Positions 15,083 to 23,635 of a DNA stretch of 64,000 nt are shown piece after piece. Source of the DNA: Escherichia coli (GTDB lineage: Bacteria; Pseudomonadota; Gammaproteobacteria; Enterobacterales; Enterobacteriaceae); the NCBI RefSeq assembly GCF_030384885.1, contig NZ_CP128613.1; one strand, 5' to 3'. Both the position numbers and the translations under genes were made by a program. The notes beneath the pieces were generated by a model that saw nothing but the letters and a program-made list of their open reading frames with translations, was not told the origin of the DNA and did no database searches. Positions within the stretch are counted from its first letter, which is position 1, and each line of letters begins with the position of its first letter.

Positions 15083-16794
15083 TGAACGAAAAACATCCAG
15101 GGCCTTTAGTGGTCGAAGGAAAACTGACAGACGCCGAGCGCATGAAGCTTGAGAGCAACTACCTGCGCGGGACCATTGCGGAAGATTTAAACGACGGTCT
15201 GACCGGCGGCTTTAAGGGCGACAACTTCCTGCTGATCCGTTTCCACGGTATGTATCAGCAGGATGACCGCGATATCCGCGCCGAACGTGCTGAACAGAAG
15301 CTGGAACCGCGTCATGCGATGCTGCTGCGCTGCCGTCTGCCGGGTGGGGTGATCACCACTAAACAGTGGCAGGCAATTGATAAATTCGCCGGTGAAAACA
15401 CCATTTATGGCAGCATTCGCCTGACCAACCGCCAGACGTTCCAGTTCCACGGCATTCTGAAAAAGAACGTCAAACCGGTGCACCAGATGCTGCATTCGGT
15501 CGGTCTTGATGCGCTGGCGACCGCCAACGACATGAACCGTAATGTACTCTGCACCTCGAACCCATTTGAATCTCAGTTGCACGCGGAAGCGTATGAGTGG
15601 GCGAAGAAAATCTCTGAACATCTGCTGCCGCGTACCCGCGCCTACGCGGAGATCTGGCTCGATCAGGAGAAAGTCGCCACCACCGATGAAGAACCCATCC
15701 TCGGTCAGACCTACCTGCCGCGTAAATTCAAAACCACGGTAGTGATCCCGCCGCAGAACGATATCGATCTGCACGCCAACGACATGAACTTTGTGGCGAT
15801 CGCGGAAAACGGCAAGCTGGTGGGCTTCAACCTGCTGGTGGGCGGTGGGCTTTCTATCGAACACGGCAACAAGAAAACCTACGCCCGCACGGCGAGCGAG
15901 TTTGGCTATCTGCCACTGGAGCATACGCTGGCGGTGGCGGAAGCGGTCGTTACCACTCAGCGTGACTGGGGTAATCGTACTGACCGTAAAAACGCCAAAA
16001 CCAAATACACGCTGGAGCGCGTGGGTGTTGAGACGTTTAAAGCAGAAGTGGAACGTCGCGCGGGGATCAAATTTGAGCCGATCCGTCCTTATGAATTTAC
16101 CGGACGCGGCGATCGTATCGGCTGGGTAAAAGGGATCGATGACAAATGGCACCTGACGCTGTTTATCGAAAATGGCCGAATTCTTGATTATCCGGGGCGT
16201 CCGCTGAAAACCGGCCTGCTGGAGATCGCGAAGATCCACAAAGGTGATTTCCGCATTACGGCGAACCAGAATCTGATCATCGCCGGTGTACCGGAAAGCG
16301 AGAAAGCGAAGATTGAGAAGATCGCCAAAGAGAGCGGATTGATGAATGCCGTCACGCCGCAGCGCGAAAACTCAATGGCCTGCGTGTCATTCCCGACTTG
16401 CCCGTTGGCGATGGCGGAAGCGGAGCGTTTCCTGCCGTCGTTTATCGATAACATCGATAATTTAATGGCGAAACATGGTGTCAGCGATGAGCACATCGTG
16501 ATGCGTGTAACAGGCTGCCCGAACGGTTGTGGTCGCGCGATGCTGGCGGAAGTGGGCCTGGTGGGTAAAGCGCCGGGTCGCTACAACCTGCATCTTGGCG
16601 GCAACCGCATGGGAACGCGTATCCCACGGATGTATAAAGAAAACATCACCGAGCCGGAAATCCTGGCGACGCTTGATGAACTGATAGGGCGCTGGGCGAA
16701 AGAGCGTGAAGCGGGTGAAGGCTTCGGTGACTTTACGGTGCGTGCGGGCATCATTCGCCCGGTGCTCGATCCGGCGCGTGATTTGTGGGATTAA
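15082..16794 (+). CDS. cysI: Sulfite reductase [NADPH] hemoprotein beta component (570 aa)
   Basis: ATG overlaps the cysJ stop; siroheme/4Fe-4S sulfite reductase family sequence. Confidence 0.95.
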
Positions 16795-16814
16795 CCATCA
16801 GTCCAGTCTTGTAG

Positions 16815-16848
16815 GCCTGATAAGACGCGTAAGCGTCGCATCAGGCAA
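16815..16848. repeat. REP element between cysI and cysH
   Basis: gtaggcctgataagacgcgtaagcgtcgcatcaggc palindrome. Confidence 0.7.
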
Positions 16849-16867
16849 GGCAAACAGTGAGGAATCT

Positions 16868-17602
16868 ATGTCCAAACTCGATCTAAATGCCCTGAACGAA
16901 CTGCCGAAGGTAGATCGCATTCTGGCGCTGGCGGAAACTAACGCCGAGCTTGAAAAACTGGATGCTGAAGGCCGCGTTGCCTGGGCGCTGGAAAATCTGC
17001 CCGGTGAATATGTGCTTTCTTCCAGTTTCGGCATTCAGGCGGCGGTGAGCCTGCATCTGGTTAATCAGATTCGCCCGGATATCCCGGTGATCCTGACCGA
17101 TACGGGTTATCTGTTCCCGGAAACCTACCGCTTTATTGACGAGTTAACGGACAAACTCAAGCTCAACCTGAAAGTGTACCGCGCTACCGAAAGCGCCGCC
17201 TGGCAGGAAGCACGCTACGGCAAACTGTGGGAGCAGGGCGTTGAAGGCATTGAAAAGTACAACGATATCAACAAAGTCGAACCGATGAACCGGGCGCTGA
17301 AAGAACTGAACGCACAAACGTGGTTTGCTGGCCTGCGCCGTGAACAATCCGGCAGCCGCGCTAATTTACCGGTGTTGGCAATTCAACGTGGTGTATTTAA
17401 AGTGCTGCCGATTATCGACTGGGATAACCGAACTATTTATCAGTATCTGCAAAAACATGGCCTGAAATATCACCCATTATGGGACGAAGGATATTTATCG
17501 GTTGGTGATACACATACAACCCGTAAATGGGAACCCGGTATGGCGGAAGAAGAAACGCGTTTCTTTGGCTTAAAAAGGGAATGTGGGCTGCACGAAGGGT
17601 AA
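16868..17602 (+). CDS. cysH: Phosphoadenosine phosphosulfate (PAPS) reductase (244 aa)
   Basis: Start [14 protein letters not shown] at ATG 16868 with gagg SD; track ORF from 16706 rejected as in-frame extension. Confidence 0.93.
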
Positions 17603-17865
17603 ATATTGTCGGATAAAATAAACGCCTCTGTCAGAAATGATGGGGGTGTTTTTATTTTGCGAGCAGCATTCCGGCATTTAAACGTGAATATAGCAGGGGA
17701 AATCAACAGTTATAGAATGGCGTCGGGTGCTTGAGGCTGTCTGGCGTTAAGCATTCGCGAGGTTCCAGATGGACAAAAGCCCCAGGCGATATATCTATCA
17801 ACCTGAGGCTCGCGTTCGAACGTAGCAATTCGGATGTTAGTCTCTTCTTTGCAGGGAGGCAAGAC

Positions 17866-18018
17866 ATGCTGACAAAATATGCCCTTGTGGCAATCATCGT
17901 ACTGTGTTGTACAGTACTGGGATTCACGCTGATGGTAGGCGACTCGTTGTGTGAGTTGAGTATCAGAGAACGTGGTATGGAGTTTAAGGCAGTTCTCGCT
18001 TACGAATCGAAGAAGTAG
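17866..18018 (+). CDS. Hok/Gef-family type I toxin, HokE-like small membrane peptide (50 aa)
   Basis: ATG 17866 after GGGAGG; peptide [50 protein letters not shown] has one TM helix and the conserved Hok C-terminal pattern; 8-bp stem-loop 18024-18045 follows the stop. Confidence 0.75.
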
Positions 18019-18256
18019 CCACCACGCGGGGGTAAAACCCCGCGTATTGAATTGTGATGGTTTGGTCTCCTGCACCCTTTTTTTCATTTATATTGTTTTT
18101 GTGAATATTATGCCTGTGTTTATTATTTATATATATCACAGATGAAAATCATTGAATTATTCATAATGTGAATATTTTATTGAACGATATATATCACAGA
18201 TAATTTTTAATATATGCGTAAATATCCTTTAAGTTTTACTGAAGGATAAAAACATT

Positions 18257-19690
18257 GTGACTTTCTTTGATTTCTGGGGAAAAACCCGACGTGGCGAGAA
18301 AGAGGGTGGCGACGATTATCACCTTCTTTGCTGGCATTCGCTGGATGTAGCCGCGATAGGCTATTTAATGGTCAAAAACAACTGTTTCGGGCTGGCTGAC
18401 TATTTTCGTCAATTAGGTTTCGCTGACACGGATCAGGCAGCACAATTTTTCGCCTGGTTGTTGTGCTGGCACGATACTGGAAAATTTGCCCGCTCATTTC
18501 AGCAACTTTACCTGCACCCACAACTCAAGGTTCCGGAAGGCGCAAGAAAGAATTACGAAAAGATCTCTCATTCAACGCTGGGTTACTGGTTGTGGCATCA
18601 TTATTTAATTGAATGTGAAGAGTTGCTTCCTTCATCTTCACTCTCTTTGCGCAAACTTAAACGAGTAATAGATATGTGGATGCCCGTGACGACCGGGCAT
18701 CATGGTCGGCCTCCTGACCGTATCGATGAACTGGACAACTTTCTGCCTGAAGACAAAGCTGCCGCACGGGATTTTCTCCTTGAAATCAAGGTACTGTTTC
18801 CGCTCATCGAGATCCCTACATTCTGGGATGATGACGAGGGCGTTGAACTTATAAAACATTTTTCCTGGTATATCTCTGCAACCGTCGTACTCGCAGACTG
18901 GACGGGATCGTCAACGCGGTTTTTTCCACGCGTTGCACAGGCAATGGATATTAAAGATTACTGGCAGAAGGCTTTAGTTCAGGCTCAAAACGCATTAACC
19001 GTCTTTCCCCCAAAAGCAGAAAGCGCGCCTTTCACTGGAATTAATACGCTGTTTCCTTTTATTGAGAACCCAACACCGTTACAGCAAAAGGTGTTGGATC
19101 TGGATATCAGCCAGCCAGGACCACAGTTGTTTATTCTGGAAGATGTGACTGGCGCAGGTAAAACAGAAGCGGCGCTTATCCTGGCGCACAGGTTGATGTC
19201 TGCGGGGAAAGCACAGGGTTTGTTTTTTGGTTTGCCAACAATGGCAACGGCCAATGCCATGTACGATAGGCTGGTAAAAACCTGGCTTGCTTTCTATTCG
19301 CCACAATCCCGCCCCAGCCTGGTGCTGGCACACAGCGCTCGTTCGCTAATGGATCGCTTTAACGCATCGCTGTGGTCTGGTGATTTTGTGGGGTCAGAAG
19401 AACCGGATGAACAAGCGTTCAGTCAGGGATGTGCGGCCTGGTTTGCTGACAGTAACAAGAAGGCGTTGCTGGCTGAAATTGGCGTCGGCACGCTGGATCA
19501 GGCGATGATGGCGGTGATGCCGTTCAAACATAATAATCTGCGGCTTCTGGGGCTGAGTAACAAAATCCTGCTAGCCGATGAGATCCACGCCTGTGACGCT
19601 TATATGTCGTGCATTCTTGAAGGGCTGATCGAGCGGCAGGCGCGTGGCGGAAACAGCGTTATTTTGCTTTCTGCTACGTTGCCGGGGTAG
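18257..19690 (+). pseudogene. cas3: Truncated cas3: N-terminal HD nuclease plus start of helicase domain, about 477 codons of an expected roughly 890
   Basis: GTG start; HD-domain N-terminus (HLLCWHSLDVAA...WHDTGKF), Walker A GAGKT and LLSATLP motifs; ORF stops at 19690 and a cas5e fragment begins 57 bp later. Confidence 0.85.
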
Positions 19691-19746
19691 GGATACGGCG
19701 TGATGACACCGAATGCTTAAACGCGTTTAATCGCCACTATTCACTG

Positions 19747-20304
19747 GTGGTTTGCGCCAGCCGTAACCCGCGCTGGGCACGGGATTATCACACGGTCCAG
19801 ATGCCAAAAGAGGTGCGTAAAGCGCGTTATTTCAGCCGTCGCGAAGAGTTGAGCGCCCCTGATCTTCTAAGCGCGATTATCTCCCGGCGCGACTACTACA
19901 CCGATGCCTGGTGGATGGTGGCCGTGGCAACAACAGCTGATGCGCCTTACAGCCTCGAACAGTTGCAGGAAGGTTTACGCCATCCGGTTTTTCCGCTTTA
20001 TCTGGGGCGAAAAAGCCATCCGCTGGCATTACCCCTTGCGCCGTTACTGCTTGAAGGTAACGCGTCTGATGCCTTACGTAACGCATACCAACAGTATCAG
20101 GATCGTTTCCACGAACTGAAAGTCTCACTCCCGAAACTTCAGGATGAATGCTGGTGGGAAGGGGAGCACGATGGCCTGGTCTCGAGCAAAATATTACGCC
20201 GCCGGGATGTTCCTTTAAATCGTCAGCAGTGGCTGTTTGGGGAACGCACCGTCAATCAGGGGCCGTGGCTCAGCAAGGAGGAACCATGTACCTCTCAAGA
20301 ATAA
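19747..20304 (+). pseudogene. cas5: C-terminal fragment of cas5e (casD), N-terminal portion missing
   Basis: Contains RDYHTV and YLGRKSHPL-type Cas5e motifs; ends overlapping the cas6e start as in intact I-E loci; no SD before the first in-frame GTG. Confidence 0.7.
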
Positions 20305-20932
20305 CCTTACATACCGGCCAGCTTTCGCCTGCGCAGTTACTGCATCTGGTGGATCGCGGTGAATATGTGATGCATCAGTGGCTGTGGGATCTTTTTCCTG
20401 GCGGCAAAGAAAGGCAATTTCTTTATCGTCGGGAAGAACTCCAGGGCGCGTTTCGCTTTTTTGTCCTGTCGCAGGAACGCCCGGCGGAAAGTGAAATGTT
20501 CACCATCGAATGCCGGTCATTTGCGCCGGAGCTGCGTACCGGACAATCCCTTTGTTTCAACCTGCGGGCGAATCCAACAGTCTGTAAAGCGGGTAAGCGC
20601 CACGATCTGCTGATGGAGGCGAAACGGCAGGTGAGGGGGCAGGCGGAAGGAAGTGATGTCTGGTTGCATCAACAACAGGCGGCGCTGGGCTGGCTGGCTG
20701 CGCAGGGAGAGAGAAGTGGTTTTACACTGCTGGATACCTCGGTCGATGCCTACCGACAACAGCAACTGCGGCGGGAAAATGCCCGGCAACTGATCCAGTT
20801 CAGTAGCGTGGATTATACGGGGATGCTGACGGTCACCGAGCCAGGGTTATTTCTGCAACGTCTCTGCCTGGGGTATGGCAAAAGCCGGGCGTTCGGCTGT
20901 GGTCTGATGTTAATCAAACCCGGAGCAGAGGC

Positions 20933-20936
<4 letters not shown>
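20286..20936 (+). CDS. cas6e: CRISPR pre-crRNA endoribonuclease Cas6e / CasE (216 aa)
   Basis: ATG 20286 after strong SD aaggagg; N-terminus MYLSRITL typical of CasE; C-terminal glycine-rich loop GYGKSRAFGCGL. Confidence 0.88.
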
Positions 20937-22146
<1,210 letters not shown>

Positions 22147-22242
22147 GTTACCCGTTCTTTAAAAATAAGGAAATGTTTGAATTTAGTTGGTAGATTGTTG
22201 ATGTGGAATAAAATTGTTTAAAAACAGATACGTATGCTTAGT
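22147..22242 (+). promoter_or_regulatory. AT-rich CRISPR leader between cas2 and the first repeat
   Basis: AT-rich, contains agttggtagattgt shared with the other leader. Confidence 0.65.
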
Positions 22243-22576
22243 GTGTTCCCCGCGCCAGCGGGGATAAACCGAATACCCAGCGCTATTTCGAGCGCGAGAG
22301 AGTGTGTTCCCCGCGCCAGCGGGGATAAACCGGAAATTTCGGAAATTAAATCCGCTCGCGATCGGTGTTCCCCGCGCCAGCGGGGATAAACCCCATGGCA
22401 GGAAGAGCGGATGATTTAGGGGTAAGTGTTCCCCGCGCCAGCGGGGATAAACCGAAGCCGGATCACATTTTCTTAGCGGAGCTGACGTGTTCCCCGCGCC
22501 AGCGGGGATAAACCGCTCTCGGTTCTGGGGTACTGTTACCCATAACTGAGCTCCCCCGCGTCAGCGGGGGAACTCC
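22243..22576 (+). CRISPR. Type I-E CRISPR array next to cas2: 6 repeats (GTGTTCCCCGCGCCAGCGGGGATAAACCG; third ends in C; last degenerate) and 5 spacers of 32 bp
   Basis: Repeats read at 22243, 22304, 22365, 22426, 22487 and degenerate at 22548. Confidence 0.95.
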
Positions 22577-22597: not shown

Positions 22598-23635
22598 TCA
22601 TGACGCCTTCGCCAGTTCCTTCACCAGCGGTAGCATTATCCGCATAACGTCACGGCAGCGACGTTCTATTCTTCCAGGAAGCGCCTTATCAATATGCTGT
22701 TGATTATCAAGCCTTACATCATGCCAGCTATTTCCCGCCGGGAAGGCCGGTGTTTTTGCGCGTTGCTGATAACCATCCTTATTTCCAAGATTCCAGTTGG
22801 TCGCCTCCACCGAAAGTACCGCAATACCGGCTTTGTCGAAAACTTCTGCATCGTTACAACACCCAGTGCCTTTCGGATAGTTTTTATTCAAACCTGGATT
22901 TGTTGTCGCTGCAATCCCATGATTACGCGCAATTGCCAGCGCTCGATCACGGGTTAATTTCCTGACAGCCTCTGGTGTATTTACACCACTATTAAAATAC
23001 AATTTATCGCCAACAATTAAGTTATCGAGATTAATCACCAGCAGCGTATTTTTCTTTTCAGTATCGCTCATGCGCTTGAGTAAATTCTCAGCGCCTAATT
23101 TCCCTTCTTCTTCTCCACTGGTTGCCACAAAACGAATACCATACTCGGTAGGCGTATTTTTCAGACGTTCAGCCAGTTCCAGCATGACACCTAAACCTGC
23201 GGCGTTATCATCCATTCCTTGTAACGTCAGCCCGCCGAGATTGGCATCGGCGTCGGCATCGCTCAGTGGAGCGTACGTATCAAGATGCGCCATAATGATG
23301 ATCTGCTGCGGCGCTTTGCCTTCATGAGCGGCAATCACCGTACTTCCCGTCACGTTGTGCCAGTTTTTGCGGTTATCGCGGGCGGTGTAAATATATCGGC
23401 TATTAAATGTCCGAATATCACTGCGATAACCCATCTGTTGAAACTGTTGGCGAATATAATCGGCAGATAACATTTCTGCAGGAGTTCCGGTCATGCGTCC
23501 CGGAAAGAAAGTAGCAATATGTCGTGCCTGTGTATTAGCAAAATCACCAGGTTTAGGTGACGAGGCGTGTACGGGGAGAATAAAGCATACGCCGAGCGCC
23601 AGGGCAGCGGTACGGTGGCGCAATGCGGAAAACAT
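22598..23635 (-). CDS. iap: Alkaline phosphatase isozyme conversion aminopeptidase (345 aa)
   Basis: Full-length ORF with signal-peptide-like N-terminus; synteny cas2-CRISPR-iap-cysD. Confidence 0.9.
   Translation of the reverse strand: MFSALRHRTAALALGVCFILPVHASSPKPGDFANTQARHIATFFPGRMTGTPAEMLSADYIRQQFQQMGYRSDIRTFNSRYIYTARDNRKNWHNVTGSTVIAAHEGKAPQQIIIMAHLDTYAPLSDADADANLGGLTLQGMDDNAAGLGVMLELAERLKNTPTEYGIRFVATSGEEEGKLGAENLLKRMSDTEKKNTLLVINLDNLIVGDKLYFNSGVNTPEAVRKLTRDRALAIARNHGIAATTNPGLNKNYPKGTGCCNDAEVFDKAGIAVLSVEATNWNLGNKDGYQQRAKTPAFPAGNSWHDVRLDNQQHIDKALPGRIERRCRDVMRIMLPLVKELAKAS

Follow-up and report, generated by a model that had tools for sequence, protein, structure and literature searches.

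The small gene between cysH and cas3 in an Escherichia coli chromosome is very probably an intact copy of the known hokX/sokX toxin–antitoxin locus

The small gene that lies between cysH and cas3 in this Escherichia coli chromosome can be assigned with high confidence to hokX/sokX, of which it is an intact copy; hokX/sokX is a chromosomal toxin–antitoxin locus of type I and belongs to the hok/sok family. The locus is already known, having been described in papers of 2014, 2020 and 2025, and it is present here in its common, uninterrupted form. Published work likewise covers its place next to the type I-E CRISPR-Cas genes, the fact that K-12 lacks it and the toxicity of this very peptide. The outcome of our analysis is a map that places the toxin, its antisense RNA SokX and the RNA elements of regulation in the coordinates of the window (the whole 64,000-nucleotide stretch that was analysed, numbered from its first letter), together with reasons not to infer a functional link from the proximity of cas3; its value lies mainly in correct annotation.

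The toxin gene comprises two elements.

17854–17859, plus strand: Shine-Dalgarno sequence GGGAGG of hokX, 6 nt 5′ of the ATG.
17866–18018, plus strand: hokX coding sequence of 50 codons, with the ATG at 17866 and a TAG ending at 18018 (from the sequence and the open reading frame list).

An initial annotation, made from the letters of the window, had reported a 50-codon reading frame at 17866–18018 behind a strong GGGAGG Shine-Dalgarno sequence, and re-reading the sequence returned the same coordinates and the 6-nt spacing. The peptide of 50 amino acids has the architecture that the initial annotation had ascribed to it, a transmembrane helix near the N-terminus followed by the Hok/Gef pattern. 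Residues 6–24 form the hydrophobic helix (mean Kyte-Doolittle hydropathy 2.76), and the polar C-terminal part carries the conserved Cys29 within an SLCE motif that aligns with HokA, HokC, HokD, HokE and R1 Hok. A profile search, proposed at the time as a check, was significant: the peptide matches the Pfam family HOK_GEF (PF01848) over model positions 1–42 of 42 (38.9 bits, E = 6.3e-10). In NCBIfam, the best-scoring models are HokA, with 53 bits where 89 are required, and one for a generic Hok subfamily, with 39.5 bits where 73 are required. By its Pfam match the peptide belongs to the Hok family, but with these scores it is not HokA. The assignment to HokA (NCBIfam equivalog NF007290) was rejected on this score and on an identity of 48% to K-12 HokA; the HokA model came out on top in NCBIfam only because no nearer equivalog model scored.

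To place the peptide among its relatives, we used the five Hok proteins translated from the MG1655 record. HokX is identical to HokE at 39 of 50 positions (78%), to HokA at 24 of 50 (48%) and to HokB, HokC and HokD at 32–37%, which, among the K-12 proteins, bears out the earlier statement that the peptide is closest to HokE. We nevertheless rejected orthology with hokE: the K-12 gene adjoins ybdK, in a different neighbourhood, and at 78% peptide identity the two are paralogues. The “HokE-like” reading was therefore right about the family and the nearest paralogue but not about the locus, which is the named hokX/sokX and neither hokE nor new. In RefSeq the product is WP_000956458.1, “Hok/Gef family protein”, annotated by PGAP in thousands of genomes. 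Among eight hokX alleles the distinct codon changes comprise seven synonymous ones and a single non-synonymous one (K41R).

The Tyr46 codon of HokX is a TAC, and its UACG context (18001–18004) is nearly identical to that in hokE. According to a preprint, A-to-I editing by TadA recodes the corresponding tyrosine to cysteine in hokC, hokD and hokE. HokX Tyr46 may be edited likewise; a search of the local fold around the UACG codon did not find a convincing tRNA-Arg-like hairpin, so that the candidate editing site is based on the similarity to hokE.

The identity of the locus follows from its position and its leader. cysH ends at 17602 and the cas3 reading frame begins at 18257; the gene thus lies immediately 3′ of cysH, in the cysH–cas3/iap interval, and is preceded by a sokX-homologous leader. 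This leader is 90–95% identical to the known hokX/sokX, the annotated sokX included. In MG1655, the annotated ncRNA sokX (b4701) separates cas3 from cysH and is encoded antiparallel to these two genes, and homology with K-12 spans the whole leader including the hok ATG and stops right there: K-12 has lost the toxin reading frame and kept sokX. In the literature, hokX was placed in the cysH–iap region and first seen in E. coli B, in which an insertion sequence (IS) was reported there (PMC7232551). A hok toxin gene and sokX adjoin cysH in 90% of 237 urinary isolates, the remaining ones having sokX alone, as in K-12 (PMC12736100). A “hok sok system” is also one of the blocks of the CRISPR-I locus, found in all strains but those with the E2 cas variant (Almendros et al, 2014; PMC3903273).

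A comparison across E. coli genomes, likewise suggested by the initial annotation, shows the locus next to cysH in most strains. The predicted hokX mRNA is present in part or whole in 5,415 of 5,426 complete genomes, 4,146 of which have at least 80% of its length. About three quarters of the complete genomes retain the hokX reading frame, mostly with the identical protein WP_000956458.1, which also occurs in strain 2013C-4282 (in a 100% identical region), in O157:H7 and in other strains. In an even sampling of the ranked matches, about 60% were full-length, about 12% ended at 18040 and about 20% consisted of the K-12-type leader only.

On the plus strand, the following elements delimit the hokX transcript and its regulatory structures.

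17620–17660, plus strand: intrinsic terminator of cysH, a hairpin with a T-run (terminator scan), forming the 5′ boundary and lying outside the module.
17710–17717, plus strand: TATAGAAT, a putative −10 element for hokX transcription; the Rfam match begins 7 nt further on, at 17725.
17725–18084, plus strand: predicted full-length hokX mRNA of about 360 nt, from the 5′ end GGGUGCUUGAGG to the end of a run of seven T (T7).
17725–17738, plus strand: tac, the 5′-terminal GGGUGCUUGAGGCU (14 nt), which pairs with fbi in the full-length RNA.
About 17777–17783, plus strand: ucb, AAGCCCC, which pairs with tac in the Rfam consensus.
17805–17844, plus strand: Sok-target hairpin, in which the Shine-Dalgarno-like GAGGCU (17805–17810) pairs with dcb, AGUCUC (17839–17844).
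18024–18045, plus strand: GC-rich 8-bp hairpin ACGCGGGG-GTAAAA-CCCCGCGT, with eight perfect pairs and a 6-nt loop.
18064–18084, plus strand: fbi, GGUCUCCUGCACCC (18064–18077), complementary to the 5′ terminus of the mRNA, with the T7 run (18078–18084) behind it.

The leader at 17725–17881 on the plus strand matches the Rfam family RF01794 over the full model (positions 1–157) with 104.5 bits (E = 3.6e-24, gathering score 59), the sole above-threshold Rfam match in the 64-kb window. As the match is on the plus strand, the model, although named “sok”, describes the leader of the hok mRNA. Annotations derived from RF01794 assign “sok” to the incorrect strand and overstate its length by about 100 nt; in an EHEC RNA-Seq table, “sok_15/sokX” appears as a feature of 152 nt. 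A second Rfam candidate, ctRNA_p42d at 17618–17660, was dismissed as weak (24.8 bits, threshold 50) and corresponds to the cysH terminator hairpin.

Both ends of the predicted transcript have comparative backing. The 5′ end is conserved and coincides with the start of the Rfam model at 17725, and the putative −10 motif upstream of it is conserved in seven alleles, with variable sequence 5′ of the motif. We found no good −35 box for this promoter, and a sigma-70 scan listed neither the hok nor the sok promoter; both were assigned by homology and geometry and match the consensus more weakly than the scan threshold demands. At the other end, homology with strains that lack cas genes ends at 18083/18084, where the T-run ends, which fits a 3′ end of the hokX mRNA at this point. 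A separate terminator hairpin before the T7 run was not found; what precedes the run is fbi, whose pairing partner is the mRNA 5′ end about 340 nt away.

The initial annotation had called for RNA folding and a covariance search for the fbi and tac elements, and these could now be located. The tac/fbi duplex has a predicted free energy of −21.8 kcal/mol, a value reached by none of 5,000 shuffles of the 3′ tail, and the pairing is kept in five other alleles through G-C/G-U exchanges. In the minimum free energy fold of 17725–18083, the ends are paired and the AGCC of ucb pairs with the GGCU of the Shine-Dalgarno-like GAGGCU (the predicted closed form). When the RNA is truncated after the 3′ hairpin, the GAGGCU/AGUCUC hairpin forms instead, as in the Rfam consensus (the predicted open form). 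These folds predict a switch between a closed and an open form, in which ucb and dcb would compete for pairing with the Shine-Dalgarno-like box. The perfect 8-bp stem–loop at 18024–18045, noted earlier as consistent with the structured 3′ end of hok mRNAs, is present and forms in both folds, full-length and truncated. By analogy with the last stem–loop of the R1 hok mRNA, whose role has been described (PMC9841398), processing is predicted to stop at this stem–loop, which would then form the 3′ end of the active hokX mRNA.

The same GGGG-N6-CCCC hairpin, located behind the hok stop codon, has taken up an IS421/IS186-family element in other strains, whose homology to the window ends at 18040; in one examined strain of this class, the element lies inside the hairpin. 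K-12 hokC and hokE also have an IS186 just 3′ of the reading frame, and the hairpin looks like a recurrent IS target.

The antisense partner is encoded on the minus strand.

17769–17826, minus strand: SokX antisense RNA (by alignment to the MG1655 ncRNA sokX, b4701).
17834–17862, minus strand: putative sokX promoter, with a −35 element TTGCCT (17862–17857), a 17-nt spacer and a −10 element TAACAT (17839–17834).

The initial annotation could place neither Sok nor mok. A search for the antisense RNA now returns a homologue of the annotated sokX at about 17826–17769 on the minus strand, with a predicted promoter and a hairpin followed by a U-tract; a canonical mok is still absent. In the predicted fold of the minus strand from 17830 to 17765 (−23.7 kcal/mol, z = −3.1), an unpaired 5′ tail precedes a GC-rich hairpin and UUUUGU. 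The putative −10 element ends 7 nt before the 5′ end of Sok, and the −35 element overlaps the hok Shine-Dalgarno sequence. The promoter stretch is invariant in eight sequences including K-12 and agrees with the consensus at eight of 12 positions, below the scan threshold.

The mok question was addressed in seven hokX alleles and in hokE, none of which has an ATG, GTG or TTG at a workable distance after the Shine-Dalgarno-like GAGG. An R1-like mok start about 8 nt after GAGG was rejected because no start codon occurs there in any allele or in hokE. The 95-amino-acid in-frame extension of hokX from a TTG at 17731 was also rejected as mok: the reading frame exists, but a 1-nt indel near 17823 breaks it in four of the seven alleles, leaving there 20 open codons that contain no ATG, GTG or TTG. 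The doubt expressed in the initial annotation, that this extension is probably not real, was thus justified. One short frame is left as a candidate.

17834–17872, plus strand: candidate minimal mok, an upstream open reading frame (uORF) of 12 codons that crosses the hok Shine-Dalgarno sequence and whose UGA (17870–17872) overlaps the hok AUG (AUGCUGA).

The 12 codons do not vary among the seven alleles, and O157 retains a stop in the form of UAA. No Shine-Dalgarno sequence was found before the ATG at 17834. Moreover, the first six nucleotides of the uORF, ATGTTA, are the reverse complement of the sok −10 box, and because the ATG doubles as part of this box, the conservation may reflect the promoter rather than translation. 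The uORF is the only conserved mok candidate, and an unproven one. We tentatively consider it possible that, in a subgroup formed by hokX and hokE, the long mok has been replaced by a minimal leader frame coupled to hok through termination and reinitiation, with the helix of tac and fbi plus the U7 possibly acting as the terminator.

How such a locus would work can be outlined by analogy with plasmid R1. There, tac at the 5′ end pairs with fbi at the 3′ end and ucb covers the mok Shine-Dalgarno sequence; trimming of the 3′ end frees tac, the leader refolds and the mok Shine-Dalgarno sequence pairs with dcb; Sok then binds and the duplex is cut by RNase III; and hok translation requires translation of mok at least as far as the hok Shine-Dalgarno sequence (PMC9841398). 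Transferred to hokX, a weak promoter would yield the mRNA of about 360 nt, with its 5′ tac paired to its 3′ fbi. In this closed form, ucb would cover the Shine-Dalgarno-like GAGG and allow neither translation nor Sok binding. Slow 3′ trimming back to the hairpin at 18024–18045 would remove fbi, upon which the leader would refold and expose the GAGGCU/AGUCUC hairpin. The unstable SokX, made from a promoter that overlaps the hok Shine-Dalgarno sequence, would pair with the exposed region and direct cleavage by RNase III. Should SokX fall, ribosomes would translate HokX, a 50-amino-acid single-pass inner-membrane peptide expected to collapse the membrane potential; translation of the 12-codon uORF, whose stop overlaps the hok AUG, might come first.

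The toxic end point of this scheme has been addressed with the very same peptide. A preprint (bioRxiv 10.1101/2025.08.07.668861) contains the identical sequence as homologue 46_982, carried on plasmid LRP171 under an arabinose promoter and grouped with HokE in cluster 46 (60% identity). According to the preprint's text, 42 of 45 homologues were toxic and 19_179, 60_1482 and 69_1540 were the only non-toxic ones; 46_982 is not among these three, and the text thus reports the exact HokX peptide as toxic on induced expression.

Whether the native locus behaves in the same way is a separate matter. Work of Pedersen and Gerdes (1999), as cited in a preprint passage, counts against an R1-style switch at chromosomal loci, and such a switch may accordingly not operate at hokX. 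The module is also dispensable: in the even sampling, about a fifth of the genomes have leader and sokX only and about an eighth an IS in the 3′ hairpin. The strongest alternative to a functional module is hence a regulatory fossil, whose peptide is toxic if its expression is forced, whose native locus is silent, without translation or mok, and which persists solely through linkage to cysH. A similar proposal has been made for other chromosomal hok loci, of which hokA, hokB and hokC, according to work cited in a preprint passage, gave neither post-segregational killing nor activation by rifampicin. The lack of a canonical mok in the seven alleles, the repeated loss or IS disruption of the locus in E. 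coli and the low coverage, in RNA-Seq and by ribosomes, of the Rfam interval “sok_15/sokX” in EHEC fit this view as well. The pattern of conservation does not: of the eight distinct codon changes, seven are silent, lineages far apart share the identical protein, the leader shows no variation between 17834 and the hok ATG, the tac/fbi pairing is kept through G-C/G-U exchanges, and K-12 has retained sokX after the loss of hok. Neutral decay would not preserve the synonymous bias, the invariant leader and the tac/fbi pairing together, and we regard the fossil as an unlikely explanation compared with an intact hokX/sokX module.

The neighbouring cas genes raise the question of a link between the toxin module and CRISPR-Cas. 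From 16000 to 19681, the window matches strain 2013C-4282 at 100% identity; the homology breaks off inside cas3 (junction 19681/19682), which is left as an N-terminal reading frame of 477 amino acids. Beyond the junction lie a C-terminal fragment of Cas5e (profile positions 70–228) and apparently intact Cas6e, Cas1e and Cas2e, so that casA, casB and cas7e are lacking. A deletion has thus removed part of the type I-E cas operon (18257–22146), and the earlier description of a decayed CRISPR-Cas locus is borne out by the loss of the interference genes. cas2 is followed by a CRISPR array of five repeats with 61-nt spacing and four spacers (22240–22515), which was missed by Tandem Repeats Finder and recovered by another repeat search. 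After the array comes a minus-strand reading frame of 345 amino acids (22598–23635), where related strains have iap annotated. Between the hok module and the start of cas3, a very AT-rich spacer of 172 nt (18085–18256) holds two copies of TATATATCACAGAT at about 18129–18142 and 18187–18200; it occurs only in strains with this cas variant, whereas the homology of other strains ends at 18084.

In a functional reading of this arrangement, the toxin module would serve as an addiction or abortive-infection partner of CRISPR-Cas, or would drive or insulate the transcription of cas3. From the end of the module at 18084 it is indeed only 173 nt to the start of cas3, which lies on the same strand, and R1 hok/sok reportedly excludes phage, as cited in a passage of another paper. 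The comparative evidence, however, separates the two. The module adjoins cysH, with iap downstream, also where strains have no cas genes at all; the toxin reading frame is gone from K-12 though the cas operon of this strain is intact; Almendros et al (2014; PMC3903273) treat the module as a separate block that is absent only with the E2 cas variant; in the window itself, the interference genes are deleted and hokX is untouched; and hok genes in general are not enriched near defence systems (12% versus 9.4% expected at random). On these grounds we rejected a functional coupling, which we regard as very improbable. The initial annotation was correct in that the module lies upstream of cas3, but “physically coupled” over-reads what is, by this comparison of sequences, a purely positional adjacency.

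That the reading frame is a chance small intergenic ORF rather than a gene, for which its small size and nothing else speaks, is practically negligible given the matches to Pfam, NCBIfam and Rfam, the PGAP annotation in thousands of genomes and the synonymous bias of its substitutions.

The K-12 genes hokA, hokB, hokC (gef) and hokD (relF) encode proteins of the same Pfam family and the same length with 32–48% identity to HokX, and HokA, HokC and HokD share with it the LCE motif including Cys29. In K-12, mokC and mokA start at an ATG and extend the hok frame in phase, and mokB is read in a different frame; hokX shows no such arrangement.

The hok/sok system of plasmid R1 contains the same parts as hokX, namely tac, ucb, the Shine-Dalgarno-like GAGG, dcb, Sok, the hairpin after the stop codon and fbi, and in both systems the Sok promoter overlaps the hok Shine-Dalgarno sequence. 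The peptides are presumably about 40% identical. In contrast to R1, the hokX leader is about 30 nt shorter and does not contain the 70-codon out-of-frame mok, fbi abuts the T-run without a separate terminator hairpin, and the locus is chromosomal, so that a role in plasmid stabilisation is not expected.

The nearest paralogous system in K-12 is hokE/sokE (b4415/b4835): aligned over 461 nt that span each locus, the two have a mean column identity of 81%, and the spacing from Sok to hok is the same. The two differ by a 4-nt indel, an insertion in hokE, before the hok ATG, and the upstream ATG is in frame in hokE but out of frame in hokX; K-12 hokE moreover adjoins ybdK and is followed by IS186 18 nt after the reading frame.

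Finally, hokX/sokX as known from K-12 (b4701), from E. coli B and as the “hok sok system” of the CRISPR-I locus occupies the same site as in the window, directly 3′ of cysH. K-12 has the leader and sokX only, and an IS has been reported in the E. coli B copy; the copy in the window is complete and uninterrupted.
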